A DNA stretch of 32,000 nucleotides from Okeania sp. GTDB lineage: Bacteria > Cyanobacteriota > Cyanobacteriia > Cyanobacteriales > Microcoleaceae. Each line of letters begins with the position of its first letter. Position 1 is the first letter of the stretch. The stretch lies in contig NZ_JAYKGW010000165.1 of assembly GCF_035285525.1 (NCBI RefSeq), forward strand, positions 1 to 32,000, read 5' to 3'. Shown here one piece after another: positions 447-26,852 of the stretch. The position numbers and the translations under genes were made by a program. The notes below the pieces were generated by a model. The model was given only the letters and a program-made list of their open reading frames with translations, was not told the DNA's origin and ran no database searches.

Positions 447-1226
447 TCATCGATAATAAAATTCAAAATCTTTTAAAGCCATTATCCTAGTTTTATTTAA
501 ACGATAATGATAACCCATTCTCTTGCGTAACTTCTCCCCATAAGTTGCTTTTGGTTTACTACGAGAAGCATCCCAGTGCTGAGTCACTCCACTAATTTTT
601 TCCCACGCTTCACTATTAATAACCCATCCCACTTTGGCAGCAGCTAATCCCATTAAACTACCTTCTCCAGCGTGCATTCCTCTTAGTTCTGCATACTTAG
701 AAATCTTTCCCCAAGTTTCCAAAAATTCTATTTCTTTACCATTATCTCTAACTATAATAAATAAAGCTTCTCCTATCCAACTAGAATTATTAAATGAATC
801 ATTATCAATATTTAGCTTATCTGCCAACTTTTTCAATATTGGTAAACTATAAGGGCGATATCTAGAAACGTGTTCTACTAAATTTTTATGCCGTCCAGTA
901 ATTCCTGGTTTCCATTCAATATCTTCTGGCAATGATTCTAAAATTCTAGTATCAGCATCTATATATATTGCTACTGGAAATAATGATATTGCTTTCTGAC
1001 AGAGAAATCTTTTATCGTTATAACAATGTAGAATACCTTGTTGATGATATTTAAAAGCCATTACATTTTTATATATCCTAAAATCTTCAGGTTTCTCTGT
1101 ATAAATTACCAATGAAATTCCTGGAGCATTTATTTCCAAGTCTTTAGCTAATTCTTTGGCTATATCGCGATATCTTTGCCCTAGTGCTAAAGTACAAAAA
1201 CAAAATTTTTTTTGTTCCTGAGTCAT
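447..1226 (-). CDS. Uncharacterised DxD protein, putative GT-A-fold glycosyltransferase (paralogue A of 5077-5871)
   Basis: ORF 447-1250. The listed first codon is TTG, so I prefer ATG at 1226 (MTQEQKK..). It shares blocks with 5077-5871: C(F/L)CTLA(L/F)GQ.YR..AKELA, PEDF, YNDKRF and (I/V)DAD..IL. The DAD follows a hydrophobic strand, which fits a DxD nucleotide-sugar site. Confidence 0.7.
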   Translation of the reverse strand: MTQEQKKFCFCTLALGQRYRDIAKELAKDLEINAPGISLVIYTEKPEDFRIYKNVMAFKYHQQGILHCYNDKRFLCQKAISLFPVAIYIDADTRILESLPEDIEWKPGITGRHKNLVEHVSRYRPYSLPILKKLADKLNIDNDSFNNSSWIGEALFIIVRDNGKEIEFLETWGKISKYAELRGMHAGEGSLMGLAAAKVGWVINSEAWEKISGVTQHWDASRSKPKATYGEKLRKRMGYHYRLNKTRIMALKDFEFYYR

Positions 1227-1994: not shown

Positions 1995-2924
1995 TTAATT
2001 TCGTATTTTACTTGTTATGTTTTTGACTTTATCTATAAACCTTTTTCCTAAACTTTTTTTGGTCTCAGTTTTTTGAGGATAGTAAGTAGGTTTAGCTTCC
2101 CCCAAATATCGATAATGCTCCCAAATATCCCAATAAGGGCATCCAGGTTCAATCCGAAAACCTGCCCAATGTAAATATTGTACAGGTTTACCAACTTTAG
2201 GGTCAATCAAGCGATCGCCTTCCCGTTGAAAATGAGAACTACCTGCCCAACTTCCGGAACCTTTACCTTCTGGGAGACGGACTAAGTTCAATCGCCGAGC
2301 AATATGTTTTAAGACAATATAGTTAAAAATTGGCTGATCTGTAGTTTTTTCAGAAAAGTCAAAATATTCGGTATTAGCAGCACATTCAGCAAAAGTTTCA
2401 TATAATTCATCTTCTGTAAACAGGTTTTTCTTTGATGCCCACCAACCACTATTAAATACATCTTGAAGTTGTTCTTCAGTAAATATTTTATCCTCTATAA
2501 CTTTGGATGTAAAGACATTTTTTATCCCACCTAAATATTGATAGTCGCAACACAGAAAATCATAACTTTCCAGATATTTGAGATTATCAATAATTTTTTC
2601 AAAGACAACAATATCAACATCAATATAGAGAAACTCATCGAATGGTCCGAACCAACAAGCTTGTTTTTTTTGTTTATTAGGAGTATTAAAAAAGCCTTCA
2701 CCAAAAATGTTATATAATTTCTGACAAAGATTATCTACAAATTCAAAATCTGGATAAATTTCTACTCCATATTTGCTTGTAACAATTTCTGCTACCTGGT
2801 GATAATTTTCATCAAAAGGAATCATCATAATTGGAATATCAGGATCATGTAACCTGATACTTTTCAGTAGGGCAATTGTGTTATCTAGTACCTTATCATT
2901 AGCAACAATATAAATTCCTTTCAT
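1995..2924 (-). CDS. GT8-like DxD glycosyltransferase-family protein, tandem paralogue 1 of 3 (I recall this family being named Npun_R2821/Npun_R2822-type in cyanobacteria)
   Basis: ORF 1995-2975 begins with TTG. ATG at 2924 gives MKGIYIVANDK, matching the N-termini of the two neighbours. Motifs seen: IALLKSIR..PI..IPFDEN, the DxD YIDVDIVVF, and C-terminal YLHWAGFRIEPGCPYW, which resembles the GT8 HxxGxxKPW motif. Confidence 0.75.
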   Translation of the reverse strand: MKGIYIVANDKVLDNTIALLKSIRLHDPDIPIMMIPFDENYHQVAEIVTSKYGVEIYPDFEFVDNLCQKLYNIFGEGFFNTPNKQKKQACWFGPFDEFLYIDVDIVVFEKIIDNLKYLESYDFLCCDYQYLGGIKNVFTSKVIEDKIFTEEQLQDVFNSGWWASKKNLFTEDELYETFAECAANTEYFDFSEKTTDQPIFNYIVLKHIARRLNLVRLPEGKGSGSWAGSSHFQREGDRLIDPKVGKPVQYLHWAGFRIEPGCPYWDIWEHYRYLGEAKPTYYPQKTETKKSLGKRFIDKVKNITSKIRN

Positions 2925-3138
2925 AATTTTTTCTATAAAACTACCATTAAAAATCCTTGTTATAGTAATTCCCAAGGTTATGAGGTACAGTTTTTTTCTT
3001 CTTTTTCCATTCCCTGTTCTCTAAAACCTAAAATTTTGTAAAATTTTCTACCTCACCAGTATGGGAATTACTATATGTCAATTATTCTAAATTTTCTTTT
3101 ATCTCCCTAGCTACCTTTTTTACTTTATCAATAAATCT

Positions 3139-4014
3139 TCACCCAAGACTTTTTTTCCTCTCTTTCATTTGAGGATATTCAGTTGGTTTAGATTCGCCGA
3201 TGTATCGATAATCTTCCCAGATATCCCAATAAGGACAGCCTGGTTGAATCCGAATTCCTGCCCAATGTAGATACTCTAAAGGCTGATTCAAATTCTTATC
3301 TATCAGTTTATCACCTTCTCGATGAAAATGTGATGTACCTGCCCAACTTCCTGGTGCTTTTCCTGGTCTACGAACAATATTGAAACGCTTTTTAATTAGC
3401 TTCAAAACCATATAATTAATAATTGGTTGATCGGAAGTTTTCTGAGCAAAATCAAAGTATTCTGGTTGAGTTGCACATTCAGCAAATATATCATACAAAT
3501 CCTGTTCTGAAATTAAACCTTTTTTTGATGCCCACCATCCTCCATTGAAAATATCTTTAAGTTCATCTTGACTAAAAACTTGATATATTTCTGGAGTGAA
3601 TACATTTTTAATTCCCCCTAAATGTTGATAATCAAAACATAAGAAACCATATTCATTTAGGTAATTGAGATTATGAATTATTTTATCAAAAACAACAATG
3701 TCTGTATCAATATACAAAAATTCATCAAATTCTCCAAACCAGCAGGCTTGCTTACGAAATTGATTTGGTCTGACAAAAAACTTTTTACCAAAGATTTGTT
3801 GTAGTTTATTTAATAATCTTTCAATCAATTCTAAATCTTCATAGATTTTTACTCCGTAATCTCTGGAAAAACGCTCTTCTACTATTTGAGAATTATCATC
3901 ATAGGGAATTAAAATGATTGGTGTTTCAGTATCATATTTACGGATACTATTTAAGAGGGCAATACCTTGTTCAATTACCTTGTCATTTGCAGTGATATAT
4001 ATGCCACGACTCAT
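3139..4014 (-). CDS. GT8-like DxD glycosyltransferase-family protein, tandem paralogue 2 of 3
   Basis: MSRGIYITANDK.., YIDTDIVVF, YLHWAGIRIQPGCPYWDIWEDYRY. It shares long identical runs with paralogue 1 (KQACWFG.FDEFLYID.DIVVF.KII.NL.YL, GGIKNVFT, GGWWASKK). Confidence 0.8.
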   Translation of the reverse strand: MSRGIYITANDKVIEQGIALLNSIRKYDTETPIILIPYDDNSQIVEERFSRDYGVKIYEDLELIERLLNKLQQIFGKKFFVRPNQFRKQACWFGEFDEFLYIDTDIVVFDKIIHNLNYLNEYGFLCFDYQHLGGIKNVFTPEIYQVFSQDELKDIFNGGWWASKKGLISEQDLYDIFAECATQPEYFDFAQKTSDQPIINYMVLKLIKKRFNIVRRPGKAPGSWAGTSHFHREGDKLIDKNLNQPLEYLHWAGIRIQPGCPYWDIWEDYRYIGESKPTEYPQMKERKKSLG

Positions 4015-4028
4015 AAAACTTTCCTCTC

Positions 4029-5033
4029 TTATTGCATAAATTTTAGCTTCTTGAAAATTCGCTGAAAAAGATTAGGTGTATTTTTATATGGTATTGGTTT
4101 GCCTGTAAATTTTGGTCTTTTTTCCGGTTCATGGAGATAGCGATAATGGAGGAAAATATCTCGATAAGGGAAATCTAAATTTTCTCCTGCACAAACTCTA
4201 GTAAATACTTTAGATGAGACCCCAATGTAGTGTAAATAAGTTAATCTTACACCCTTATCATAAAGTAAATTATCCCGATATTCAAAATGAGGAGAAGTTA
4301 CAGAACAACCAGTTTTTTGTTCTGGGGGTAAATGCAGAGCAAAATTATAAATTGAGGCTTGCGATCGCATCATCATATAATTAATAATTGACTGATCTGG
4401 GCCATTAAGATATAAAATTTCTGATTCTCCAGAATTTAGTTTTTCTAACAACCAATTCCGCTTTTCTTCCGGAAATAAATCTTTTTTAGAACCATACAAA
4501 CCAGCGCAAAATATTTCCGACTCAATCCTTTCTTTACTGAAAATTTCTAGTAATTTAGGTGAATTAACATTGTAAACATGGGTAGGATCTTTATATTGAA
4601 AATCATATACAACTGCATCATTTCCATCTATTTTTTCAAAGAGATAATCGAAAGAATTTAGCACCAATATATCAGCATCCAAGAAAATAAATCTTTCAAA
4701 AGGACTTTCCAAATCAAAAGAGCAAAATCTGCGGTGCATTCCCATCCGGTTCACACCAGAAACCCCTTTTTCCTGCCAACGAGCAAAAGCATTAGGATGA
4801 CTTTCCCAGATTTTTGTCGAGAAGTCTTCCCACCGACTTAATATTTCCTGATTATCTAATAATTGTACATTTTTTCTGTTTTGAATTTCTGGTATAATTT
4901 TATTTAAGCGATCATCATAAGGGATGACACAAACTGGAAAGTCTGGACCAAGATTAACTTCTATACTATTTAGTATAGCAATAAGTTGATCGTAGACAAC
5001 ATCATTAGCGAGAGTGTAAATTCCTGTGGTCAT
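4029..5033 (-). CDS. GT8-like DxD glycosyltransferase-family protein, divergent tandem paralogue 3 of 3
   Basis: MTTGIYTLANDVVYDQLIAILNSIE..PVCVIPYDD, FLDADILVL, YLHYIGV...FPYRDIFLHYRYL. GGAGGAG lies about 8 nt upstream of the ATG. Only 14 nt separate its stop (4029) from the next start (4014), so the two are probably co-transcribed. Confidence 0.75.
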   Translation of the reverse strand: MTTGIYTLANDVVYDQLIAILNSIEVNLGPDFPVCVIPYDDRLNKIIPEIQNRKNVQLLDNQEILSRWEDFSTKIWESHPNAFARWQEKGVSGVNRMGMHRRFCSFDLESPFERFIFLDADILVLNSFDYLFEKIDGNDAVVYDFQYKDPTHVYNVNSPKLLEIFSKERIESEIFCAGLYGSKKDLFPEEKRNWLLEKLNSGESEILYLNGPDQSIINYMMMRSQASIYNFALHLPPEQKTGCSVTSPHFEYRDNLLYDKGVRLTYLHYIGVSSKVFTRVCAGENLDFPYRDIFLHYRYLHEPEKRPKFTGKPIPYKNTPNLFQRIFKKLKFMQ

Positions 5034-5076
5034 TCAATTTCTCCTCCATACTGAATGAAATTCAATTTTTGTGAAT

Positions 5077-5871
5077 ATGAAAAACGAAACCATTGAAAAT
5101 CCAATTTCCTACTGTTTATGTACTTTAGCATTTGGTCAATCATATCGAATGGCTGCCAAAGAATTAGCAACTAAGGCTGCAGAATCAGGAATCAGATTAA
5201 CTGTTGCTACAGATGAGCCAGAGGATTTTAAAGACCATTATAATGTTACTGCACTGAATTTTACTAGAACCAGTATCTGGAAACCTTATAATGATAAAAG
5301 ATTTGCTGTGGCTGCAGCTTTAAAAGACAATGAATGTGTAATTTTAGTAGATGCTGATAGTAATATACTAGCAGAATTGCCAAAAAAAATTAATGTTGAG
5401 CCAGGAATGACTGCATACACAGCTTATAAATCACTTGAAGAAGACTTGATTCTGCACCATGCCCAAGAAAATTTAGAAGGGTTTCGTCAATTAGCGAAAA
5501 AACTCCATATAGATTTAGCTCAGACAAAATGGGTAGCTGAAAATTTAGTTATAATCAGGAGAGATGGTGGCAAGGAATGGCAATTTCTAGATACATGGGC
5601 TTTTGCTGACCGATATTTGGGTATTAGAAAAGTATTTCAAGGGGATCATGGTTTTATAGGAGTTTCTGCTGCTTCCGTAGGTTGGCAAGTGAAGCGCAAT
5701 GATGATTTTAATCAACTTAAGTCCATAATCAAAAATATGGGTCGCGATAGTTTAGAAAAACGGACAAAACCAACTTATCTAACAAAAACCAAAAGCAGAA
5801 TAATGTTTCATTATCTCTACTACAAAGCTTTATTCAATTCATTATTGAATTATGACAAGTATTGGTCTTGA
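5077..5871 (+). CDS. Uncharacterised DxD protein, putative GT-A-fold glycosyltransferase (paralogue B of 447-1226)
   Basis: ORF 5071-5871 begins with GTG, and an ATG follows at 5077. It carries the same motif blocks as 447-1226 (YCLCTLAFGQSYR..AKELA, PEDF, YNDKRF, VDADSNIL). It is divergent from 4029-5033 with only ~40 nt between the two starts. Confidence 0.7.
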   Translation: MKNETIENPISYCLCTLAFGQSYRMAAKELATKAAESGIRLTVATDEPEDFKDHYNVTALNFTRTSIWKPYNDKRFAVAAALKDNECVILVDADSNILAELPKKINVEPGMTAYTAYKSLEEDLILHHAQENLEGFRQLAKKLHIDLAQTKWVAENLVIIRRDGGKEWQFLDTWAFADRYLGIRKVFQGDHGFIGVSAASVGWQVKRNDDFNQLKSIIKNMGRDSLEKRTKPTYLTKTKSRIMFHYLYYKALFNSLLNYDKYWS

Positions 5872-6623: not shown

Positions 6624-7511
6624 ATGAAATTACATTACTTTAAACCCAGTAAAGGCAATGGTAACTTTGGAGATAATATTAATCCCTGGCTTTGGGAAAA
6701 ATTAATTCCTGGTTTTCTAGATGAGGATCAAACAGTAGCTTTCATTGGAATAGGTACATTAATTAATGATTCCCTACTACTTAGCACTTCAATGGCTAAA
6801 AAAAGAATTATTTTTAGTACAGGAGTAGGGTATGGAGAACTTTCTACGATAAACATAGATAGTTCTTACCATATTTATTGTGTAAGAGGTCCATTATCAG
6901 CCTTCAAACTAGGATTATCATTAGATTATGCAGTTACAGATGGTGCTATTTTAGTGAAAAATTTTTTTGATTATAATCTGAAAAAAAATCGCAAATATTC
7001 CTATATGCCTCATCATAATTCAGTTAATCAAAATTGGAAAATTCTTTGTCAAGAATTAAATATTAGTTATATAGATCCATCGCTACCAGTTGAAGAAATT
7101 TTCAGGGAAATTGCACAAACAGAAATATTATTAACTGAAGCAATGCACGGTGCTATTATTGCAGATACATTTAGGGTTCCTTGGATTCCTATTGTTACTC
7201 GTGATGGTATTCTACTATCCAAATGGATAGATTGGTGTTTTTCAGTGGGATTAGAGTATAGACCTAAACATTTACCCCACTTACATTATCATCAATCGTA
7301 TAAAAAAGATTTAATTACTCCCATGAGAAATGTTAAATATTTGTACCAAAATTGGAATCATAGAAAAGATATTTTGCAAAAATTTCATAAAATAATTAAG
7401 GAATCAAAACCTTGTTTAAGTAGTAATTCAAAGCTAAATGAACTAAGCGATAAATTAGAGGAAAAAATGAATCTCTTGATTAGTGACTATCGCTCTGGAA
7501 AATTTGAATAA
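6624..7511 (+). CDS. Polysaccharide pyruvyl transferase family protein (ExoV-like)
   Basis: The N-terminus MKLHYFKPSKGNGNFGDNINPWLWEKLIP and the later LLTEAMHGAIIADTFRVPWIPI are characteristic of ExoV/CsaB-type pyruvyl transferases. Confidence 0.75.
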   Translation: MKLHYFKPSKGNGNFGDNINPWLWEKLIPGFLDEDQTVAFIGIGTLINDSLLLSTSMAKKRIIFSTGVGYGELSTINIDSSYHIYCVRGPLSAFKLGLSLDYAVTDGAILVKNFFDYNLKKNRKYSYMPHHNSVNQNWKILCQELNISYIDPSLPVEEIFREIAQTEILLTEAMHGAIIADTFRVPWIPIVTRDGILLSKWIDWCFSVGLEYRPKHLPHLHYHQSYKKDLITPMRNVKYLYQNWNHRKDILQKFHKIIKESKPCLSSNSKLNELSDKLEEKMNLLISDYRSGKFE

Positions 7512-8768
7512 TATTTTTAACTATACAAACAAAGGGTAAAGGGAAAAAAACGGTTTGACATTTTTTTTCTTTAACCTTCTACTTATGGAGATAGGGAATA
7601 GGGAGTAGTTAGGAGTTAAGAGAAAGTAGGAGTTATAGAGGAGTTAGCCGGAAAAAGAGTAAGAGTGATTCTTCTATCCTAGTCAGCCAAAAATGATCAA
7701 TTTTTGATTTTTCACCGATTTCTCGGGAACCGTACCCTACCTCAGTAGCCTAAAAGTTAGGACTTTTTGATACCTAAAATTTCCAAAACCTTTACTGGCA
7801 AAACTGTTTAGATTTAATCAGCTCATAATTCAGGTTTGCTGAAAAAGTATTTTTGTCAGGGGAGAAGCTAGAATCGAGAATCCAGGAGGAATGAAAATTA
7901 TAGAATAGGTAGTCAGAATAGTCTTTAGAGTGATTTTCTCCCCTATCTCGCCCAAAATCCTAGAATGCATGATTTTTCGCGAACCGTACCGAAATTACCA
8001 CTGAAACTGGTACTTTATTAGTTGCCAAGCTTGAAATCTTTATCTTTCAATGCTTTGATATTTAATCAGCCAGCTCTAATTAGAATTGATTAGAATTGTT
8101 AAAAATTGGCTCAAATCTCAAATACCCTTCACTAAGGACTTAAGTAAAAAACTAACTGCGAAAAAATGGCCTAACAAGTCAATTGTATAGCGCTGCGGGT
8201 AGGGAACAGGCAACAGGCAAGAGGAAGAATGAATAGCCTATAATATAAGGTTTTTAGCTATTGGACACCTCCAGTAATTTGTAAATATTAAGTGCGCACA
8301 TTGCTATAGTATTCTTTTTAACAAGAGAATGTGTTAAGCAAGGATATGATGTGAAAATTTTCACTAATTGTGAAGATAAAGAGGGTATTTATGGAGTAAT
8401 TAATATATTATTAACTCTGACAAAATTAACTGGTACGATACCTTTAATACTTTAATTATTTGGAAGTTTCCTAACATATTACCCTCCTATACCAACCCTA
8501 AAAGAACCTGGTTGGACTGCCATAATATTATTATTTGTGATCCTAATATTTTGAGCTAGGTATGATAAAAATTCTACTAAAAGTTATTATCACCTTAATT
8601 TATTGCTAGACATACCTGATAATAAACTTGTAATTATAAAAAGCACTGCCGATTCCTCTATTTTAGAACTAAATAGGGTTTTGGGAAAAAGTCTTTTTGT
8701 ATTTGGTAGGGAGTGGGTAGTAGGGAGTAGGGCAAAAAAGTGGATCAAGCTGAAAATTTATTTTCTTT

Positions 8769-8803
8769 ATACCTGTATATGTAAATAAAACATATACAGG
8801 TAT
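8769..8803 (+). terminator. Orphan intrinsic-terminator-like hairpin (13-bp perfect stem plus T-rich tail) with no credible upstream gene
   Basis: ATACCTGTATATG (8769-8781), 9-nt loop, CATATACAGGTAT (8791-8803), then TTTGATTATTTT. On the minus strand the tail would be A-rich, so it is oriented for the plus strand. Confidence 0.5.
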
Positions 8804-8906
8804 TTTGATTATTTTCCGGATTTAGGAAATCTTTATTGAAAGATGAAAGAGAATAGTGAAACTTTTCAATATTCTACTGGTAGTTTTAATTAAGGATCCA
8901 TAATTA

Positions 8907-9851
8907 ATGTTATCTAAAACTTGTTCACTCTCAATCTTAGTAGCAAGAACAGACATACCTTTTATGATGCATACAATTCCTCATATCGTTAGAATGAGTA
9001 ATTTTAATTTTATTGAAAAAGTTTTGTGTATGGATACAGCACCTCTATCTGGAGATAAAGTTATGCGTCCTGGTATTGGTACTCTAAGTGAACTGAGAGA
9101 TTGCTGTGACCAACTAATAAGTGAAGGTATTGTAGATAAAGTTGTGGAGATTAAATATGACGAAACTTATCAAAAGGAAATGTACCAAAAGCATTTTGGC
9201 AGTCGGATTAAACCCACCCATAACTATAAAGGTTATCCAATCTTGGGATCAATTTTTCATTTAGAGTCTGTACCTGGAGATTATGTGTTGCATTATGACA
9301 GTGATATGCTTCTACATCAGCAACCAGATTATAGTTGGGTAGATGAAGGTATGAAGTTAATGGAGAAATATCCGGAAATAATGGCAATTAGACCATTGAC
9401 AGGACCGCCAACTGAGGATGGTAGTATATACCAAAGACATGAATACCTAAAATCAGATGCAGGGGAGTTTTATCAATTCAAATTTTTCAGCAGTAGGGTA
9501 TATTTGATTAACCGTAAACGCTTTGACAAGTTACTGCCATTGCCAATTTTATGGCGTTCTTACAAAAATAAATTTCTTAATCAACTGCCACTAAACCTAA
9601 AAACTCCCTTAAATTACTATACCAACAAAGGCAAGCTGGATTCTTGGGAGGTTATGGTATCTATGCAGTTAGAGAGAACTGACTATGTACGAGCAACTAT
9701 GAGTTCCCCCAAGGCGTGGACAATTCATCCTAAAGACCGAAGTCCAGAATATATTAGATCTTTACCAAATATTATCGAAAAAATAGAGCAAGGATGGTAT
9801 CCACCTGAGCAAGCTGGACACTATGACTTTATTTCAGAATATTGGCTTTGA
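8907..9851 (+). CDS. Hypothetical protein, possible GT-A-like transferase (DSD motif)
   Basis: 314-aa ORF with an ATG start. N-terminal SLSILVARTD..., and VLHYDSDMLLH after a hydrophobic strand resembles a DxD site. It sits inside the glycosyltransferase island. The family was not recognised with certainty. Confidence 0.55.
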   Translation: MLSKTCSLSILVARTDIPFMMHTIPHIVRMSNFNFIEKVLCMDTAPLSGDKVMRPGIGTLSELRDCCDQLISEGIVDKVVEIKYDETYQKEMYQKHFGSRIKPTHNYKGYPILGSIFHLESVPGDYVLHYDSDMLLHQQPDYSWVDEGMKLMEKYPEIMAIRPLTGPPTEDGSIYQRHEYLKSDAGEFYQFKFFSSRVYLINRKRFDKLLPLPILWRSYKNKFLNQLPLNLKTPLNYYTNKGKLDSWEVMVSMQLERTDYVRATMSSPKAWTIHPKDRSPEYIRSLPNIIEKIEQGWYPPEQAGHYDFISEYWL

Positions 9852-10039
9852 GGAAACCAGAATTAACTTAAAAATATAGTTTTTTCCCCTATCTTGATCA
9901 AGGAAGTTTATGTTATTTAACTTAAGCCAATATGGAAATTTATTTACCTTTCAAACCTCTGCAATCATAAAATTACTATTTCTACAAATATAGCATTTAT
10001 CAAGCTAACGAAGCCTGCTTATCATTTTCTTACTTATTT

Positions 10040-10086
10040 AGGACTTACAGAAGGAAACTATATATATTTTCCTGGCGTAAGTCCTG
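10040..10086. mobile_element. Minimal MITE of the CAGGACTTACGCA-TIR family
   Basis: AGGACTTACAG..(AT-rich core)..GGCGTAAGTCCTG, i.e. terminal inverted repeats with almost no interior. Confidence 0.55.
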
Positions 10087-10190
10087 CTATGGCAAAAGTT
10101 GCTTTTGCTTATACCAATTTCATAAAATATTGCTACTGGACTGTTTTAGCTAAAATAGTGGGTTTATTTTTAGTTGTGAGTTGTGGCAAG

Positions 10191-10235
10191 ACAAGGAAGA
10201 CAAGGAAGACAAGGAAGACAAGGAAGACAAGGAAG
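10191..10235. repeat. 9-nt tandem repeat ACAAGGAAG x5
   Basis: Five exact head-to-tail copies, followed by degenerate copies (AAAGGAAG, ACAAGAGAG). Confidence 0.9.
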
Positions 10236-10293
10236 AAAGGAAGACAAGAGAGAAAAATCTATTGCCACATTTAAGATGAAACAATCCAGTAGT

Positions 10294-10411
10294 GGACTGT
10301 TTCACTTAAAACTGTGCATGATTATTTGTCATGGCGCGACTCGCAGCGCCAGCGAAGCGCAAACACATTCGTTTGCGGAGCATGGCCTCAGGAAAGCAAT
10401 CTCAGGCCAAC
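10294..10411. mobile_element. Degenerate MITE copy, inverted relative to 10823-10976
   Basis: It shares TCATGGCGCGACTCGCAG and GCGGAGCATGRCCTCAGGAAAGCAATCTCA with the reverse complement of 10823-10976. Its ends are decayed. Confidence 0.45.
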
Positions 10412-10669
10412 TTCACTATTGCACCATTTTAAGAATATACTGACGTGTCAAGACTAAAATTGTGGATTAGGAACAAGCAACAAGCGAAGACCTCTCCCCC
10501 AACCCCTCTCCTGCGAGGAGAGGGGAGAAATATCCCCCAACGCTAGTAGGGAAGGGGCTTGGAGGCCGTGTTGTTTCATCCACATTTTCAAGTTTGACGC
10601 GCCACTACAGTGCTTTTATCTATAATGATGGGAATTTAGAGATTAACATTGTAACAACCTTTTTTTTCT

Positions 10670-10762
10670 AAGGACTTACGCACCAAGCGCTACATCTAGT
10701 CAGGGCAAATGGCATTTGCTCCTACGGATAGTGTATATTTTTATATTTGACGTAAGTCCTGT
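10670..10762. mobile_element. MITE, CAGGACTTACGCA-TIR family
   Basis: AAGGACTTACGCACC ... TGACGTAAGTCCTG terminal inverted repeats. Confidence 0.65.
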
Positions 10763-10822
10763 TGATTTGGTATGATAACCCATAATATCAAATCCAGTAG
10801 TATTGGTATAAAAAAACATAGA

Positions 10823-10976
10823 CAGGACTTATGTATTAGGAAGGAGTTTTGGTCATTTGAGATTGCTTTCCTGAGGTCATGCTCCGCGACATGAATGCGG
10901 AGCGAAACGCTGTCGCTTGCTATAGCAAAGCTGCGAGTCGCGCCATGACAGAAATAAGTTGTTTTGCGTAAGTTCT
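10823..10976. mobile_element. MITE, CAGGACTTACGCA-TIR family, long form with GC-rich core
   Basis: CAGGACTTATGTATTAGGAAGGAGTTTTGGTCATTTGAGATTGCTTTC ... ATGACAGAAATAAGTTGTTTTGCGTAAGTTCT. A shorter relative lies at 31891-31983. Confidence 0.7.
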
Positions 10977-11277
10977 AATCGAAACTGGGTTTATATGAAA
11001 TACCAACTATACTAATATTTATCTTCCATAAACCGGGTTTCTGATAACCCTTCTATTGCGAAAGGATTTGATATAATTTTGTACTTCACCGCTATGGCAA
11101 TTCCTATATCTGAACTGCCGATGTACAGGGGAAGTCCAGCTATATTTTGGCAAAATTTATTTATAATAATTGATTTTAATTCATTATTTGTCAATATTGA
11201 GCAAAAGCTTGAGCAAATTTTATTTACATCAATTTCATAAATATAAACAACAAAAACATAGTATTTTAGTAAAAATA

Positions 11278-12459
11278 ATGGTTGAGTCAATGAGTATTGA
11301 TAATTTAGGTAATGTCTCTAAAAAAAAGTCAATTGCTGTCTTTTATCCCTTATTTTCTGGTGGAGGTGCTGAGTCAGTTGGCTTGTGGATATTAGAAGCT
11401 TTAAAAGAAACATACGATTTAACATTATTTACTCTATTTAATGTAGATTTTGATAAACTGAATTCTATGTACGGAACTCAAATTTCTCAGGAAATGGTAA
11501 AAGTTAAAGCAATTTTTCCTAAAGTAACTGAGCGTTCTTTCAAGTTCTTATTTGCAAATAATAGAAAATTAGCAATTATGGCAATGCATCTTGTGCTACG
11601 GCATTTGAAAAGTCATAATCAGGAATATGATTTACTATTATCTGGTTACAATGCTGTAGACTTTGGCCGTATCGGAGTTCAATATGTTCATTGGATTAAT
11701 GTGATTTCTAATGAGGGGCTGTATGGTAAAATTTCTAACTCTTCCTTGGAGAATATTAAGCTTAACATATCAATGGTAAATTCTTTTTCAGTATCTAAAT
11801 TATTTAAAGATAAATTTGGTATTGATGCCAAAGTTGTATATCCTCCTGTTTTACTGGATGAGCAAAATATATCTTGGGAAGAAAAAGAAAATGCTTTTAT
11901 TTGTAGTGGAAGATTGACATCAGCTAAAGCTCCTCATAAAGTGATTCAGATATTGAAAAAAGTTCGTCAAAAAGGTTTTGATGTTAAGCTTTATATTACA
12001 GGAGGGGGAGGAGGAGTATATGGGTGGAAATATAAAAGAACATTGACAAAAATGGTTAAAGAAAATAGTGAATGGGTGAAGTTGTGTGAAAATCTACCTT
12101 ATAAAGACTACGTTAAAATTCTATTCAAGTGTAGATATGGTATTCACCACAAACCAGAACCTTTTGGTATTTCAGTAGCAGAAATGATGAAAGCAGGTGC
12201 AATACCTTTTGTCAGAAGTAAACGAAAAGGAATAGCAGGACAAGTAGAGATAGTTGGAGAAGAAAATCAAGAGTTATTTTTTGAGGATCAAGATGATGCT
12301 GTAGAAAAAATCACTAATGTTCTTCAAGATTCAGAAATACAGCAAAAACTTCAAGGAGCTTTGCTGAAGAGAAAAGATTTCTTTTCTACTGAGAAATTTA
12401 TGGCTGGTATTAGTGAGGTTGTCAAAAATTATTTTCAACAACACAGCAATCCTATTTGA
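11278..12459 (+). CDS. Glycosyltransferase family 4 (GT-B fold, Glycos_transf_1-type)
   Basis: KKSIAVFYPLFSGGGAESVG at the N-terminus and EPFGISVAEMMKAGAIPFV (the E..G....EAM..G.P motif) near the C-terminus. ORF track start 11170 adds an implausible AT-rich leader, so I prefer ATG 11278 (MVESMS..) or 11290. Confidence 0.8.
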   Translation: MVESMSIDNLGNVSKKKSIAVFYPLFSGGGAESVGLWILEALKETYDLTLFTLFNVDFDKLNSMYGTQISQEMVKVKAIFPKVTERSFKFLFANNRKLAIMAMHLVLRHLKSHNQEYDLLLSGYNAVDFGRIGVQYVHWINVISNEGLYGKISNSSLENIKLNISMVNSFSVSKLFKDKFGIDAKVVYPPVLLDEQNISWEEKENAFICSGRLTSAKAPHKVIQILKKVRQKGFDVKLYITGGGGGVYGWKYKRTLTKMVKENSEWVKLCENLPYKDYVKILFKCRYGIHHKPEPFGISVAEMMKAGAIPFVRSKRKGIAGQVEIVGEENQELFFEDQDDAVEKITNVLQDSEIQQKLQGALLKRKDFFSTEKFMAGISEVVKNYFQQHSNPI

Positions 12460-14251: not shown

Positions 14252-14487
14252 TTGTGTAAGTTCTGTTAATAACTTCACGTCACTACCAGAATAGAGTAGA
14301 GATATTCTATGGAACATTCCTACTCTGGTTTAACAATTGAAAACCGTTGTAAGTATTAAGACTTACCGATTAAAAATTATCACAAGAGAAATTAGTTATG
14401 AATTATTCTTTTCCATATCTTAAGAATCTGGAAGTACCTGGAGGAATATGGGAGGTGTGGGAAGGTTGGGGAGTTTGGGAAGTATCA

Positions 14488-14512
14488 CTTCTGACTTCTG
14501 ACTTCTGACTTC
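14488..14512. repeat. STRR heptamer array CTTCTGA x3+
   Basis: Direct reading: CTTCTGACTTCTGACTTCTGACTTCC. Confidence 0.85.
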
Positions 14513-14536
14513 CAAAGGAGTATAGGGAGATTTGGT

Positions 14537-14667
14537 CAGGACTTACGCAAAATAGCAAATTATACATCAGGTGTAGGGGCGTTTCATGTCGCGGAGCGCG
14601 ATACGGCCGTTTGCTTCGCATACTTCGTAACGCCCCTACTAAATATAGTGGTTCTGCGTAAGTCCTG
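14537..14667. mobile_element. MITE, CAGGACTTACGCA-TIR family
   Basis: CAGGACTTACGCAAAATAGC ... GGTTCTGCGTAAGTCCTG. The interior hairpin is GTAGGGGCGTT..AACGCCCCTAC. Confidence 0.7.
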
Positions 14668-14761
14668 TTGGTAATAGAACATTTTTTTCTACTGAGTGAA
14701 TTAAGCTGATATGATTTATTAATCTCTCAAAAATTAATTGCTTACCAAAAAATAAGGGTAG

Positions 14762-14893
14762 GTGCCTCCCCTTTTAAGGGGATGAAAAAATATTGAACAC
14801 GGTTCCCGATAAATCAGTATTTCAAGCCTCCGATTTCTAACGCCCACCGTGTTTACTCGGAGGTTCGCTCTCTACTGATAACTGATAACTGAA
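14762..14893. repeat. Mosaic intergenic repeat (family: CAGTTAT STRR - TAGAGA - TTGAAATACTGA - TTTTTTCATCCCCT.AAAAGG), reverse orientation, abutting the HAD start codon
   Basis: Its reverse complement aligns block-wise with 16786-16875 and 17319-17533. It also carries a GGTTCCCGA box and an extra CCTCCGA..TCGGAGG hairpin. Confidence 0.6.
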
Positions 14894-15604
14894 ATGACCC
14901 CAATCAAAATGACTACAATCTTATTCTGGGATATTGATGGAACATTATTAACTACTGATAGAGCAGGTATCTTTGCTCTAGAAGATGCTGCAAGAGAAAT
15001 TATTGGTAAAGAGATAGATTTATCAAACCTTAATACAGCAGGAGCAACGGATCGTTTACTAGCAGCTCAAATTTTAGAATTAGGGGGTATTACTCCTGAT
15101 GATGGAAAAATAGATCAACTATTACAAGTTTATGGTGAATATCTACCTGAAAGTCTCACTAGAAAACAAGGAGGAGTATTACCAGGAGTCAAAGAAATTC
15201 TCTCTCATTTACATCCTAACCGTAACGATGTAGTTTCTCTATTACTAACAGGAAATACCTCTGTGGGAGCAAGGGCAAAACTTACTTACTATGGTTTAGA
15301 TAGTTATTTTAATTTTACTCAGGGTGGATTTTCAGATACAGTAGCAGATAGAAAAGCGATCGCTCGTCAAGCGTTAACCAGTGCCCAAGAATTAGTAGGA
15401 GAAATTAATTTAGAAAAAGTTTATGTGATTGGAGATACACCCCATGATATAAGTTGTTGTCAGGCGATTGGTGCTAGGTCTATTGCTGTTGCTACTGGTT
15501 CGTTTAAATTAGAGGAGTTACAAGAACATAATCCTTGGTGGGCTATACCTTGTTTACCAACACCAGATGTTTTTATCGATAAAATCAGCTTAAGAAATTA
15601 TTAA
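14894..15604 (+). CDS. HAD-superfamily hydrolase (phosphatase, phosphoglycolate-phosphatase-like subfamily)
   Basis: Motif I FWDIDGTLL (DxDGT), motif II LLTGNT, and motif IV VIGDTPHDI. Confidence 0.85.
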   Translation: MTPIKMTTILFWDIDGTLLTTDRAGIFALEDAAREIIGKEIDLSNLNTAGATDRLLAAQILELGGITPDDGKIDQLLQVYGEYLPESLTRKQGGVLPGVKEILSHLHPNRNDVVSLLLTGNTSVGARAKLTYYGLDSYFNFTQGGFSDTVADRKAIARQALTSAQELVGEINLEKVYVIGDTPHDISCCQAIGARSIAVATGSFKLEELQEHNPWWAIPCLPTPDVFIDKISLRNY

Positions 15605-19423: not shown

Positions 19424-19509
19424 TTGGAACAGAAGGAAAAACCTTACAGAAGGTAGATATTTTCCCAATTTTTTACACGCTCCGATACCAACGGACATGA
19501 TATTAAATC

Positions 19510-19746
19510 TAACATTAATAAGATTTTGTTGGGTTTCGTTACAACTATTTTGGTGATTTACACTCTAACATTAATAAGATTTTGTTGGGTTTCGTTACAA
19601 CTATTTTGGTGATTTACACCTTAACATTAATAAGATTTTGTTGGGTTTCTTTACAACTATTTTAGTGATTTACACCTTAACATTAATAAGATTTTGTTGG
19701 GTTTCGTTCCTCAACCCAACCTACAACTATTTTGGTGATTTACATC
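19510..19746. repeat. Tandem repeat, 56-bp unit x4 (last copy 12 nt longer)
   Basis: Units start at 19510, 19566, 19622 and 19678 (TAACATTAATAAGATTTTGTTGGGTTTCGTTACAACTATTTTGGTGATTTACAC). Copy 4 retains the full GTTGGGTT..AACCCAAC hairpin, which copies 1-3 have lost. Confidence 0.9.
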
Positions 19747-20718: not shown

Positions 20719-20807
20719 TCTAGTAGATTTATTAGACGGCTTAATTATTATAGTTGTGTCAGTCCACAACTTTGAAAAATTGAAGCTAAAAACTGAGTAA
20801 GCATTCA

Positions 20808-21193
20808 GCAGTCAGAAGTCAGCAGTCAACTATCTATTTTATTTTGAGATAAAAGCTTTATGATACGGTTCCCGATAAATCAGCAATTTTATCTGACTAA
20901 AAAATTCAACTTTCACTTTCTTTATTCGTTTAAATATCTTCCTTAAGGTTGAAGTTTTTATTGCTGAAGTGCTGACAGCTAATATCTGAATGCTTACAAA
21001 GCAGTCAGAAGTCAGCAGTCAACTATCTATTTTATTTTGAGATAAAAGCTTTATGATACGGTTCCCGATAAATCAGCAATTTTATCTGACTAAAAAATTC
21101 AACTTTTACTTTCTTTATTCGTTTAAATATCTTCCTTAAGGTTGAAGTTTTTATTGCTGAAGTGCTGACAGCTAATAGCTGAATGCTTACAAA
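20808..21193. repeat. 193-bp tandem duplication (2 near-identical units) inside a TIR-bounded element
   Basis: The unit starts at 20808 and again at 21001, with only a few mismatches. GTAAGCATTCAG (20797-20808) is inverted against CTGAATGCTTAC at 20986-20997 and 21179-21190. Each unit carries a GGTTCCCGA box. Confidence 0.9.
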
Positions 21194-21224: not shown

Positions 21225-22148
21225 CTATTTTAATTGTTGATTTAACCAGTTTTCCAAATCTACTACAGTTGCTAAATCAAAAATTTCATCACCTAAAATA
21301 TCTAATTTTTCCAGAGATAACTGTTCTATTTTAGCTTGGATTTCTGGAGCTATTTCTCCAAATTTTCGCCGAATTTGACGTTTAACTAATATCCCTATTC
21401 CTTCCTCTCTTCCAATTCCAATTCCAATTTCTATTCCTGCGCTTTTTGCTAGAGAAATTTCTGCTTTTCTATCTTCTATCAATATTTCCTGTTTCTGTAT
21501 TTCCTCTAATTCTTCATTATTTAAGTTCGCCCGATTTGCTATATTTAATGCTGCTTTTATTTCTGATACTTTTTCCAATGAGTTGGGTATTATTTTTAAA
21601 CTTGGTGCTGATTTCAGAAAATATATCCATTTCTCACTTAGGGTTTCTAAAGCTGATAATTCTTTCTTAAATTTAGGTAATTCCAGAAACATTAATGTTA
21701 ATTCATCTCGATAATTAAATAACTCTTTCTCTTCTTTAAATCTAAACTTAGTAATGATTTCTTCGGATTCCTCAAATAAAATAAAATCAGTAATTGTTAA
21801 ACCGATAAAAGGTTTCAACATTCTATAACCTTGACCCACATCTAATTGATTTCCATAAGCCTTAGCTAAATTATAAATTACTCGTTTTTCAAAATCTTCT
21901 ACATTCAAAACTTGCATTTCAATAATCACAGTCGAACCATTATTTAAAATTGCTTTAACATCTACATAAGTCTCCTTGAGAGTATTAGTAACTCCAGGAT
22001 TATAAGGGTTGATTATTTTCAGGGATTGAATAATATTTTGATTGTTATAAACAATAGCATTGAGAAAACTAATCAGAATATTTTGACTGTGAATAGAACC
22101 AAATATTTTTTTAAAAGCAAAGTCAGTTTTGGGGCTGATAAATTTCAT
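21225..22148 (-). CDS. Rpn-family recombination-promoting nuclease / putative transposase (PD-(D/E)XK, YhgA-like)
   Basis: The N-terminus MKFISPKTDFAFKKIFGS..N..ILISFLNAIV and VDV...N...VIIEMQ are the signature of this family, which is abundant in cyanobacteria. Confidence 0.85.
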   Translation of the reverse strand: MKFISPKTDFAFKKIFGSIHSQNILISFLNAIVYNNQNIIQSLKIINPYNPGVTNTLKETYVDVKAILNNGSTVIIEMQVLNVEDFEKRVIYNLAKAYGNQLDVGQGYRMLKPFIGLTITDFILFEESEEIITKFRFKEEKELFNYRDELTLMFLELPKFKKELSALETLSEKWIYFLKSAPSLKIIPNSLEKVSEIKAALNIANRANLNNEELEEIQKQEILIEDRKAEISLAKSAGIEIGIGIGREEGIGILVKRQIRRKFGEIAPEIQAKIEQLSLEKLDILGDEIFDLATVVDLENWLNQQLK

Positions 22149-22182: not shown

Positions 22183-22217
22183 CAGGGAACAGGGAACAGG
22201 GAACAGGAAACAGGAAA
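22183..22217. repeat. STRR heptamer array CAGGGAA x3 / CAGGAAA x2
   Basis: Direct reading; it begins 35 nt upstream of the Rpn start codon. Confidence 0.85.
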
Positions 22218-22290
22218 CACTTTTTCAACTGTTCCCCAGTCTAAGATTGATCATCAGTCCATGTCCTAACCGCCTTGGCGGTTGCTATAT

Positions 22291-22620: not shown

Positions 22621-24834
22621 TTATCCATTACAACTTGAACTATCAAAATTAAACTCATACTGATATAACTTAGACTCATCACTAACGTCAAATGATTCTT
22701 TAGCTACCGCATCCAAAGCAGCATCATCCAAAATTGTCGAACCACTTTCTAATAACAACTTTGGTCCGACACTAATACTACCATCAGGATTCACCAAAAC
22801 TCCCACGATCGCCTTACCTTCCAACTTTTGCCTGCAAGCAGCATCTGGATAAATACCAGAAATAGCTCTAGGTTGAGTCAAACTTTCTTCACCCAACCCT
22901 AATTCGATCGCCCACTGCGTATAAGCATCAAAAGCACCTAAAGCTAAATTCCTTGACTGCGACTCTTCAGCAAGTGCAGCATCTGCTTCCTCTAGTTCCT
23001 TGAGTCTATCTAACATCGAACCCTCAAATTTTGCTTCCCCTTTTTTTGATGGAGATGATTCAGAAGTAGGTGTTATTTCCTCCTCTGATGTTGACGGTTG
23101 TGTTTCTTCCAAATTGTTAGCAGCTAAATTTTCTTCTGGGGTGGGAGATGCTTCAGCTTCAGAATTAGGAGTAGTTTCAGCTTTTTCTGATAATAAACTT
23201 TCCAGCTCTTTTTGGGTTTCTAATTTGGGAGACGCTTTAGCAGTAGGAACAACTGACAGTGTTTCCGGTTCAGATTTTTCGGTTTCCGTAGGAGTGATAA
23301 TAATAATCTTTCCTTGTTTGACTTCTTCCCTGATCTTGTCTAGAGTCTTGCCATCCCATAATTCTTCAAGTATGGAACTTTTGGGCGGTTCATTTTCAGT
23401 AGTTTGCTCTGGAGGTAAGGTAGTTTTTGGAGTTACGGCAACTGTCTCTGGTTCAGACTTTTCGATTTCTGGTTCAGACTTTTCAGTTTCATTTTTTGAG
23501 GGAGTGACAATAATAATTGTTTCTTGTTTTGCTTCCTCCTGTATCTCATCTAGAGTTTTGCCATCCCATAATTCTTCAAGTATGGAACTTTTGGGCGGTT
23601 CATTTTCAGTAGTTTGCTCTGGAGGTAAGATAGTTTCTGGAGTTACGGCAACTGTTTCTGGTTCAGATTTTTCGGTTTCCTTTGGTCGGGGAACGATCAC
23701 AATAATCTTTCCTTGTTTTGCTTCTTCCTGTATCTGGTTCAGAGTTTTGCCATCCCATAATTGTTCGAGTATTGACTCTTTTGGCGATTCATTTTCAGAA
23801 GTCTGCTTTGGAGATAAAGTAGTTTCTGGAGTTGCTGCTGCTACAGAAGTTTCTTCTGTGGGAATAACAGCAGTTTCTTCTGGTTGAGTATCGGTGTTAT
23901 TTTCTGTGGGAATAACAGCAATTTGATTTTCGGGTTTATCTTGATAACGTTCTGGAGGTAATTCTAAACCGTCTGAGTATGATCCAGTAAATTTTTCTGT
24001 AGATGGAACTTCTTGAGAAGTTGTCTCTGGAGTTGAACCACGAGATAAACCTGAGTCATTAACTTCATTAGTCAAGTTTTGATTTTTCCTAATTTGATAC
24101 TCATCTAATATACTTTGATTTGGAGGTTGTGGTGGTTCAATGGGATATCTATCTATAGGTGGAAAATTTGTACTAGGTACTGGAGATGGAAATATTGTGC
24201 TTCGTGGGATTGGAGATGGAAATGTTGTGGTTTGTGGTGTTGGAGATGGAAATGTTGTGTTTTGTGGTGTTGGGGATGGAAATGTTGGAACCTCTAGTGC
24301 TGGTGGTGGAAATATTGGGGTTTGTGGTGCTACTGCTCTACCTGGTATGGTATCGGAAAATTCTAGTTCTATTGAAGGCTGATTTTTCAGCAACTCAGAA
24401 GCAGTAGGACTTGGAGCTGCAGGACTTGGAGCTGCAGGACTTGGAGCTGCAGGAGATGATTCTGATAATTTGTAATCTGAGGGATCTAATGGAATGGTGG
24501 GTAAGTCTGAAGATGAGGATGAAGACAAAGGTGGTATTTCACCTGGAGTTGTTGGTGCAGTTAGGGAAATCTCAGATGGTACTGTAGAGAATTTAATTTC
24601 TTCTTCTGGTTGAGGTAAACGTTGGAGTTGTTCTGGAGTTAATTCGATAAATCCTACTGTTGGTGGTAGTTTAGCTTTCTCAGAAAATAGGGAGAGTTTT
24701 GGTAAGTTAACTCCTAGAATAGTATGGATAATTACAGAAGTAAAGAGTCCTATCCATATTGGGTGATTCAAGGAGTCTTTGAAGAAAGGTTGTTCAATTG
24801 GTTGTTCTAATTCTAGGGAAGAAAAGTTAGACAT
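22621..24834 (-). CDS. TonB-family energy-transducer-like protein with a very long repeat-rich Pro/Glu/Thr/Ser linker
   Basis: N-terminal TM with an SxxxH motif (FTSVIIHTILG). Pro-rich linker. C-terminal TonB_C-like GIYPDAA...LEGKAIVGVLVNPDGSI...SGSTILDDAALDAVAKESF. AGGAG lies 9 nt upstream of the ATG. Confidence 0.75.
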   Translation of the reverse strand: MSNFSSLELEQPIEQPFFKDSLNHPIWIGLFTSVIIHTILGVNLPKLSLFSEKAKLPPTVGFIELTPEQLQRLPQPEEEIKFSTVPSEISLTAPTTPGEIPPLSSSSSSDLPTIPLDPSDYKLSESSPAAPSPAAPSPAAPSPTASELLKNQPSIELEFSDTIPGRAVAPQTPIFPPPALEVPTFPSPTPQNTTFPSPTPQTTTFPSPIPRSTIFPSPVPSTNFPPIDRYPIEPPQPPNQSILDEYQIRKNQNLTNEVNDSGLSRGSTPETTSQEVPSTEKFTGSYSDGLELPPERYQDKPENQIAVIPTENNTDTQPEETAVIPTEETSVAAATPETTLSPKQTSENESPKESILEQLWDGKTLNQIQEEAKQGKIIVIVPRPKETEKSEPETVAVTPETILPPEQTTENEPPKSSILEELWDGKTLDEIQEEAKQETIIIVTPSKNETEKSEPEIEKSEPETVAVTPKTTLPPEQTTENEPPKSSILEELWDGKTLDKIREEVKQGKIIIITPTETEKSEPETLSVVPTAKASPKLETQKELESLLSEKAETTPNSEAEASPTPEENLAANNLEETQPSTSEEEITPTSESSPSKKGEAKFEGSMLDRLKELEEADAALAEESQSRNLALGAFDAYTQWAIELGLGEESLTQPRAISGIYPDAACRQKLEGKAIVGVLVNPDGSISVGPKLLLESGSTILDDAALDAVAKESFDVSDESKLYQYEFNFDSSSCNG
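23270..23850. repeat. Intragenic tandem repeats (189-210 nt units x3) within the TonB-like gene
   Basis: 23341-23465 and 23551-23675 differ at about 5 positions, and a third, more diverged copy starts at 23740. They encode SILEELWDGKTL..IQEEAKQ..III..P..TEKSEPETVAVTP.T.LPPEQTTENEPPKS. Additional repeats are 30-nt units at 24181-24290 and 15-nt units at 24406-24450. Confidence 0.9.
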
Positions 24835-26598: not shown

Positions 26599-26711
26599 AA
26601 ATTTCCATATTTGTGAGGTAAGTTCATTAATTAATAATTAATAATTAGGGCTTGCTGATTAAATATCAAAGTTTTTACTAGCAAAACTTTCAGCATTTAT
26701 AGATACTAAAT

Positions 26712-26814
26712 TCCCTATTTTCTATTGCCTATTGCCTATTTTCTATTGCCTATTCCCTATTGCCTATTGCCTATTGCCTATTCCCTGTTCCCTATTCCCT
26801 ATTCCCTGTTCCCT
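26712..26814. repeat. Long STRR heptamer array (CCTATTG / CCTATTC / CCTGTTC, ~15 units)
   Basis: Direct reading; it ends 38 nt upstream of the kinase start codon. Confidence 0.9.
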
Positions 26815-26852
26815 AATTATTAATTATAACGATCTTTTAGGTATAAAATCAA

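Follow-up and report, generated by a model that had tools for sequence, protein, structure and literature searches.

We propose that a three-gene array in the Okeania sp. contig NZ_JAYKGW010000165.1 (NCBI RefSeq assembly GCF_035285525.1; positions 1 to 32,000, a stretch of 32,000 nucleotides hereafter called the window) encodes three active, DxD-bearing glycosyltransferases (GTs) of the retaining GT-A kind, and that it combines an ancient A/B gene pair with an old second B copy inside a surface-glycan locus; to this reading as a whole we attach a probability of a little over 70%. The genes, termed g1, g2 and g3, belong to NCBIfam family NF045582, which is named after Npun_R2821/Npun_R2822 and has no function assigned, and the array is a real, fairly ordinary three-gene instance of this catalogued and uncharacterised family. 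The sequence-only reading of this DNA had taken the genes for GT8-like paralogues duplicated locally in stages and acquiring new functions in the lineage. That interpretation is partly supported: its enzymatic half holds at the level of the fold or superfamily, and its account of the duplications is not supported. For this window the outcome is thus mainly a correction, from a snapshot of ongoing duplication to what, on comparative grounds, appears to be an ancient pair with an old extra copy and not a fresh local triplication.

Family membership and predicted fold

The existence of the three-gene array is confirmed. The open reading frame (ORF) list and translations bear out three genes on one strand, which is the minus strand, so that g3 is transcribed first. 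The features are:

4029..5033, minus strand: g3, 334 amino acids (aa), A-type NF045582 member; transcribed first, conserved upstream partner of the pair
3139..4014, minus strand: g2, 291 aa, B-type NF045582 member; begins 14 nucleotides (nt) after g3; C-terminus truncated by a nonsense mutation
3138..3085, minus strand: g2 tail relic downstream of the g2 stop, 18 in-frame codons (RFIDKVKKVAREIKENLE), no longer translated, followed by a TAA at 3084..3082
1995..2924, minus strand: g1, 309 aa from the ATG at 2924, second B-type NF045582 member

The mechanical ORF of g1 spans 1995..2975, extending to a TTG at 2975, with MKGIYIVAND beginning at the internal ATG at 2924. This ATG is almost certainly the true start, because both the orthologues (MKGIYIV) and an independent gene call (309 aa), made on the independent Logan assembly of SRR19514071 (L081), which covers this DNA a second time, begin there. 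The N-termini then read MKGIYIVAND in g1, MSRGIYITAND in g2 and MTTGIYTLAND in g3, and a DxD motif is found in each of the three proteins (DVD, DTD and DAD, with DVD in g1). An alignment of the three proteins likewise recovers the C-terminal block that the sequence-only reading had pointed out, YLHWAGFRIEPGCPYWDIWEHYRYL in g1, YLHWAGIRIQPGCPYWDIWEDYRYI in g2 and YLHYIG...FPYRDIFLHYRYL in g3, following the common pattern YLH(W/Y)(A/I)G...PY(W/R)DI(W/F)x(H/D)YRY(L/I). BLASTP aligns g1 with g2 over 294 aa at 62% identity (E 2e-141), close to the two thirds estimated by eye, and g3 is 27% identical to g2 (E 2e-26) and 28% identical to g1 (E 2e-30), in all three cases far beyond chance. The short gap between g3 and g2 is as described (4015..4028). 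A blastn comparison of the array with plasmids gave no match.

Against the full-length NF045582 hidden Markov model, whose curated cutoff is 250 bits, g1 scores 328.1 bits, g2 315.2 and g3 427.5, each well above it and with coverage running from profile position 1 or 2 to 298 or 299 of 299, which bears out the family identity given in the sequence-only reading. The tandem pair implied by the family name proved to be the norm in the 80 loci from cyanobacterial reference genomes that constitute our locus survey, whereas this window has one member more, three in all. The family is small: 1.84 billion representative proteins contained 677 matching clusters at an E-value limit of 1e-3 and 79 at a limit of 1e-30; some of the distant relatives pass the Pfam GT8 threshold, and some are fused to GT2, GT34-like or GH116 domains.

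The most frequent Pfam match in the family is PF11051 (Mannosyl_trans3), which is found in 85 of 109 members at E <= 0.01, compared with 12 of 109 for the GT8 profile PF01501. PF11051 describes a fungal alpha-1,3-mannosyltransferase family, which we take to be CAZy family GT71. Against its gathering threshold of 22 bits g1 scores just above (22.8) and g2 and g3 below (20.5 and 19.9), the matches covering about 65-115 of the 273 profile positions; only about the first 110 of these positions match, and neither structure nor context points toward mannose.

The AlphaFold2 model of g3, built from a 109-sequence alignment (the fold of g1 and g2 being taken from their homology to g3), has a predicted local distance difference test score (pLDDT) of 93.5 and a predicted template-modelling score (pTM) of 0.90. 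In a Foldseek search its best matches in the PDB are glycogenin-1/2, LARGE1, WbbM and LgtC, all GT8 or GT8-like, followed by UGGT (GT24) and Kre2/CmsA (GT15), the top matches having E-values from about 1e-7 to about 4e-6, probability 1.0, template-modelling (TM) scores of 0.35-0.6 and 13-16% identity. Eight residues are invariant in the 109 sequences of both subtypes, namely D119 and D121 of the DxD, D144, Q146, Q214, N218, Y219 and H268, and G271 is nearly so, the C-terminal histidine motif reading HYIG or HWAG. Residues Q214, N218 and Y219 belong to the family motif PDQSIINY, which corresponds to the GT8 active-site motif DQ(D)xLN. In profile-profile comparison by hhalign the family motif aligns with gDQgilN of glycogenin and with yDQtllNY of a Pfam-annotated GT8 protein; the counterpart of its glutamine in LgtC is presumably Q189. 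The family DxD aligns in the same manner with FMDADT of glycogenin and YIDTDI of the GT8 neighbour. The comparison with the Pfam-annotated GT8 protein, which comes from the same Nostoc operon as members of the family, reached 95% probability (E 3e-8), with DxD set against DxD and DQsIlNY against DQtllNY. A profile search against PDB sequences gave 18 weak matches (E 0.1-0.6), all of them GT8 enzymes and with the DxD aligned to that of glycogenin, and in a second, sub-threshold stretch paired the family YlHyiG with LHY..KPW of Gat1; the g2 and g3 sequences by themselves gave nothing meaningful when compared directly with PDB chains.

Taken against the enzymes of CAZy GT8 (LgtC, glycogenin, the xylosyltransferase domain of LARGE1, Gat1), which share the GT-A fold and supply the best structural matches, the family thus lines up in its N-terminal beta-strand with (A/T)NDxxY, in its DxD and in DQxxxN, and tentatively in the C-terminal H-x-x-G. 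The histidine of the GT8 motif HxxGxxKPW is the third metal ligand. The likeness of the C-terminal block to that motif, drawn in the sequence-only reading, extends at a sub-threshold level to H268 and G271 and not to the KPW part, which is missing in g1-g3; the A type furthermore carries two insertions that have no counterpart in the B type. Based on the modelled fold and the motif alignments we consider NF045582 to be a distinct family of the GT8-like retaining GT-A superfamily, and not a GT8 family at the Pfam level. That earlier reading had also named findings that would speak against it, among them the absence of a predicted GT-A fold and a DxD not conserved among homologues; the g3 model best matches retaining GT-A enzymes, and both aspartates are invariant.

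Subtypes, selection and the history of the array

In a neighbour-joining (NJ) tree the family splits into two clades, A and B, with g3 in the former and g1 and g2 in the latter. At 19 alignment columns each clade has a residue of its own, conserved to at least 90%, while 38 columns are conserved and identical in both. Homologues of the g3 type number 1828 and are 60-88% identical across many cyanobacterial orders, and the 1058 homologues of the g2 type, about 70% identical, cover a similar cyanobacterial range and often lie on the same contigs as the g3-type set, so the family is widespread in cyanobacteria. These distributions indicate that A and B are ancient, phylum-wide subtypes, only about 30% identical, which the single NF045582 model lumps together. 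Since the g3 type is conserved to this degree and is the usual upstream partner of a B gene, g3 is the conserved A member of the pair and not a decayed copy: the strong divergence of the third paralogue noticed earlier holds as a percentage, and its reading as a far more diverged copy does not.

All three genes evolve under purifying selection. The ratio of nonsynonymous to synonymous substitution rates (dN/dS) against orthologues is 0.10-0.135 for g1, 0.16 for g2 (against its Dapis orthologue) and 0.15-0.18 for g3. Between g1 and g2, the pair for which the sequence-only reading had proposed this estimate, dN/dS is 0.19 at a synonymous divergence (dS) of 1.42, which is near saturation. At 107 highly conserved columns g1 departs from the B-type consensus at 4 and g2 at 3, all conservatively. 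Because dN/dS is low and the deviations are few and conservative, we see no sign in these sequences of radical neofunctionalisation of g1 or g2, contrary to what had been suggested for this lineage. Gene conversion between g1 and g2 was considered as the source of their long identical runs and rejected, as no exact nucleotide match exceeds 16 nt and identity at third positions stays at 25-65% along the genes; the identical stretches at the protein level stem from purifying selection.

The second B copy, g2, has recently lost its tail. Where g2 ends with TGA (3141..3139), the Dapis orthologue has CGA (Arg); the independent assembly L081 shows this stop as well, and the relic downstream can still be aligned to the tails of g1 and the g2 orthologue. 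We therefore read the stop as a CGA-to-TGA nonsense mutation that removed the last 19 residues, a basic C-terminal tail, and we regard the event as recent because the codons beyond it are still intact. In the family these tails are basic and amphipathic (hydrophobic moment 0.52-0.76, net charge +2 to +5), and AlphaFold places a low-confidence terminal helix there. LgtC has a C-terminal tail that serves membrane association, and by this resemblance the tails of the g1-g3 family may have the same role.

The loss invites the alternative that g2 is a redundant copy decaying into a pseudogene and that the locus is functionally a g3/g1 A/B pair. Besides the nonsense mutation itself, it is favoured by the state of the g2-type gene in relatives: in the Okeania loci L010 (14872..15805) and L013 (14094..14591) this gene is in fragments next to an intact g1-type gene, and it is absent from several others, the g1 type being intact in every case, which suggests that some relatives can do without the second B copy. 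In the window, however, g2 retains 291 open codons, all catalytic motifs and the constrained dN/dS noted above, and it sits where the B gene of a pair normally does, 14 nt behind g3. LgtC, moreover, reportedly retains activity when a comparable tail is removed from its C-terminus. On balance we judge decay of g2 unlikely, though a serious contender, and keep to three active enzymes.

Turning to the pairing of the subtypes, we observed that in most of the 80 loci a B-type gene comes after an A-type gene on the same strand, and that 55 of 78 adjacent same-strand pairs of family genes are spaced by 1-30 nt, with a median of 10 nt. The A-type genes themselves fall into two classes, 64-68% identical between and 85-98% identical within classes, and both classes occur inside Okeania and inside Dapis beside a g1-type B gene that stays 86-97% identical. 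The comparison is between the following loci:

L001-L003 versus L009, L010, L013, L016, L018 and L020: the A-type classes, with the A gene near position 10001 in most

This pattern suggests that alleles have been replaced, or have recombined, within a variable glycan locus. One might alternatively view A and B as subunits of a single obligate heteromeric enzyme, with the extra B serving as an alternative subunit that alters specificity. The A-then-B order and its spacing of about 10 nt, conserved across orders, would suggest translational coupling; the 19 subtype-specific positions, as well as the two A classes, about 65% identical and each set beside a nearly constant g1-type B, would also fit such a complex. 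Against this, both subtypes retain the full set of catalytic motifs, so that neither resembles a dead scaffold, an A gene without adjacent B is found in L011, L023, L039 and L067, and the two are 0.4-1.9 kb apart in several Okeania loci and separated by a gene in Nostoc (L082). We accordingly hold an obligate heteromer to be rather doubtful and prefer A and B as separate enzymes, for which distinct putative acceptors or donors are plausible.

The relation of g1 to g2 bears on the origin of the array. Counterparts of g1, 86-91% identical, occur in 13 Okeania, Dapis, Trichodesmium and related loci, and a counterpart of g2, 86% identical, lies at 14255-15184 in Dapis BLCC M172 (L002). The g1 group and the g2 group were each monophyletic in all 200 NJ bootstraps, the g1 group joined a B gene of Baaleninema in 191, and g1 and g2 formed exclusive sisters in just 3. 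Identity values tell the same story, with g1 nearer to Baaleninema (70%) than to g2 (63%), and g2 nearer to Phormidium LEGE 05292 (72%) and Lusitaniella (68%) than to g1 (63%). A recent tandem duplication in situ would leave closest relatives with unsaturated dS, which g1 and g2 are not. The gene order also differs between loci: in the window the array reads g3-g2-g1-cluster9 with a further cluster-9 gene on the far side of g3 (both described below), in L002 A'-g3-g1-cluster9'-cluster9-g2, and in most Okeania loci g3-g1-cluster9, sometimes followed by a g2 remnant. Together these comparisons indicate that the g1/g2 split is old, whether by an ancient duplication followed by losses or by acquisition of a second B lineage.

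The staged duplication of the sequence-only reading, in which one ancestral gene underwent two local duplications (the first setting g3 apart, the later one separating g1 from g2) and the copies neofunctionalised within the lineage, would account for three homologous genes lying adjacent on the same strand, for a derived F-to-W change common to g1 and g2 and for the unusual DVD variant of the DxD in g1. It founders on the A/B split, which is phylum-wide and older than the lineage, on the orthologues that g1 and g2 each possess in other genera in the order g3-g1-x-x-g2 (L002), on their near-saturated dS and rare sisterhood, and on the presence of the same F-to-W change in Baaleninema and Lusitaniella; we consider it largely refuted and quite improbable. 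The ancient pair with an old extra B copy is thus the history that we carry forward.

The glycan locus and a proposed role

The genes recurring near the A/B pair in the survey are:

GT10-like gene: 51 of 80 loci, usually directly upstream
ATP-binding cassette (ABC) exporter: 37 of 80 loci
GT4 gene, first cluster: 34 of 80 loci
GT4 gene, second cluster: 33 of 80 loci
Sulfotransferase, first cluster: 20 of 80 loci
Sulfotransferase, second cluster: 15 of 80 loci

In Nostoc sp. TCL26-01 (L082) the pair closes a same-strand run whose order is GT2, GT4, GT8, GT4, ABC exporter, GT10-like, A, small GT2-like gene and B. The exporter of this run (6724..8970), upstream of the A/B pair, is MsbA/PglK-like and has a HisKA-like extension. 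More generally the exporter (cluster 2) is about 730-750 aa long, carries an unusual C-terminal coiled extension with a weak HisKA match and lies just upstream of the GT10-like gene. The Okeania and Dapis loci additionally code for a tetratricopeptide repeat (TPR)-GT41 protein, an adenylation-carrier-thioesterase protein and an epimerase. Within the window the glycan-related neighbours are:

6624..7511, plus strand: polysaccharide pyruvyl transferase (PF04230, 44.8 bits)
11170..12459, plus strand: GT4-type glycosyltransferase at the edge of the glycan locus (PF00534, 53.7 bits)

This setting, in which the neighbouring genes make glycans, together with every significant structural and profile match being a GT-A glycosyltransferase and the lack of any resemblance to methionine synthase or methyltransferases in the Pfam, NCBIfam and structural comparisons, effectively refutes membership in another class, such as the methyltransferases that the sequence-only reading had allowed for, and the 'methionine synthase' names borne by several B-type homologues in NCBI/UniRef (e.g. 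P0122, P0134, P0135, P0145, P0190) appear to be a propagated mis-annotation.

In light of these observations we posit that the three proteins are putative Mn2+/DxD-dependent retaining GT-A glycosyltransferases, remotely related to the GT8 enzymes LgtC and glycogenin. The N-terminal GIYxxANDxxY segment and the DxD-metal site would bind the nucleotide sugar, the conserved DQ and His residues would complete a GT8-like active site, and the basic amphipathic C-terminal helix may hold the enzyme at the cytoplasmic face of the membrane. A and B would attach different alpha-linked sugars, with a lipid-linked or growing oligosaccharide as their acceptor; this would later be exported and decorated, for instance by pyruvylation or sulfation, and the second B copy could provide an alternative or additional step. 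The tight A-then-B pair is probably co-transcribed, in Nostoc-type genomes at the end of a glycan-assembly operon, and rearrangement of a highly variable surface-glycan locus probably placed the two B lineages side by side. The addition of alpha-linked sugars in such a locus is thus the likely role of the array.

The related cyanobacterial loci recall the variable GT loci for O-antigen and capsule, for example in Helicobacter pylori, whose Lewis-antigen pathway has GT10 fucosyltransferases and the ABC flippase Wzk: they likewise combine cytoplasmic GTs with a GT10-like gene and an MsbA/PglK-type ABC exporter, and their gene content and GT alleles likewise vary between close species.

Several points weigh against parts of this reading. 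The exporter and the GT10-like gene of other loci are absent from this window, so that the O-antigen analogy is drawn here by inference only. At the level of the fold, the PF01501 threshold of 24.3 bits is reached by none of the three (g3 has a partial match of 21.1 bits, g1 and g2 have no match), and at TM scores and identities as low as those of the Foldseek matches a GT15, GT24 or GT6-like chemistry is inseparable from a GT8-like one. The hhalign comparison with human glycogenin-1, which paired D213-Q214 with D163-Q164 at 41% probability (E 2.9e-4), used a sequence that was confirmed in part, from the fragment aligned in the profile search against PDB. As to history, the derived tryptophan ('GWWASK') common to g1, g2, Baaleninema and Lusitaniella makes an old duplication within that subclade possible, and the tree is by NJ only, with an unstable deeper placement of g2 in which the g1+g2 clade ranged from 16 to 77 taxa across bootstraps. 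Co-transcription is deduced from spacing and from the lack of minus-strand terminator-like sites between g3, g2 and g1, scans for which are uninformative in such AT-rich DNA. Finally, literature searches, including those for Npun_R2821, R2822, R2823 and neighbouring tags, found no relevant paper and yielded no biochemical or genetic data for any family member; an open paper related to the hormogonium-polysaccharide gene set makes no mention of these genes, and we claim no link to that polysaccharide.

With these reservations, the GT8-like GT-A assignment, the two paired subtypes and the glycan-operon setting offer a testable hypothesis for what has been a nameless 'family protein'. Allele swapping and copy-number change in Okeania and Dapis suggest that in bloom- and mat-forming marine cyanobacteria the surface differs between strains in part through this locus. 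More speculatively, and with modest expectations, we suggest that the A-then-B pair might be a two-enzyme or heteromeric module building a specific alpha-linked disaccharide of an uncharacterised cyanobacterial surface glycan, with serotype-like variation. If so, the swapping of deeply divergent A alleles and the gain and loss of a second B in Okeania, Dapis and Trichodesmium relatives would translate into serotype-like glycan variation, for example under pressure from phages or grazers, to which the flanking GT6/GT8-like genes would add variation of a blood-group-like kind.

Flanking genes and other features of the window

The triplet is flanked by two genes of a second family, here called cluster 9, whose products are 35% identical to each other (BLASTP, E 6e-49):

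447..1226, minus strand: cluster-9 gene, 259 aa, no Pfam or NCBIfam match; predicted retaining-type GT-A enzyme
5077..5871, plus strand: second cluster-9 gene, 264 aa by the gene call on L081; divergent from g3

The gene at 5077..5871 groups with 26 ORFs that lie close to the A/B pair in 22 loci, and that at 447..1226 has 261 homologues, all cyanobacterial and all named hypothetical. An AlphaFold2 model of the cluster-9 protein (pLDDT 94.5) is matched by Foldseek to the GT6 enzymes GTA/GTB and BoGT6a and to the GT8 enzyme glycogenin, and its D90xD92 motif is invariant. Going by this model, cluster 9 looks like another unannotated family of retaining-type GT-A enzymes. Its sequence homology to NF045582 is undetectable by hhalign (probability 3.5%), though both are predicted to adopt the GT-A fold. 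The divergent starts of g3 and the second cluster-9 gene are merely 43 nt apart (5034..5076), and hence one or both promoters must be located within a coding region.

Farther along, a plus-strand gene at 8907..9851 codes for a 314-aa protein that has no Pfam or NCBIfam match, is 84-87% identical in L002, L010 and L013 and contains a DxD-like motif, 'HYDSDM'; it may be another unannotated glycosyltransferase. It is followed by 1.3 kb without a long ORF (9852..11169), which has a GC content of 41% against about 32% and no Rfam match and encloses at 10188..10248 a 9-nt tandem repeat, AAGACAAGG, in 6.9 copies. Over the whole window Rfam and tRNA scans found nothing, and promoter and terminator scans gave counts close to those of shuffled sequence.

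The distal part of the window is rich in repeats. Tandem repeats of 56 nt (3.6 copies, 19509..19708) and 193 nt (2.0 copies, 20807..21193) lie beside a minus-strand transposase-family gene of the PD-(D/E)XK type (PDDEXK_2 and DUF4351; 21225..22148). A minus-strand gene at 22621..24834 encodes a 737-aa protein with a TonB C-terminal domain and has internal repeats of about 190-210 nt and of 30 nt; the extreme skews in GC and AT between 23 and 25 kb are due to it, and a 295-aa plus-strand ORF overlapping it is probably spurious. Heptanucleotide tandem repeats occur at 22183..22219 (CAGGGAA, 5 copies) and at 26710..26815 (ATTCCCT, 15 copies), and these resemble the short tandemly repeated (STRR) sequences of filamentous cyanobacteria.

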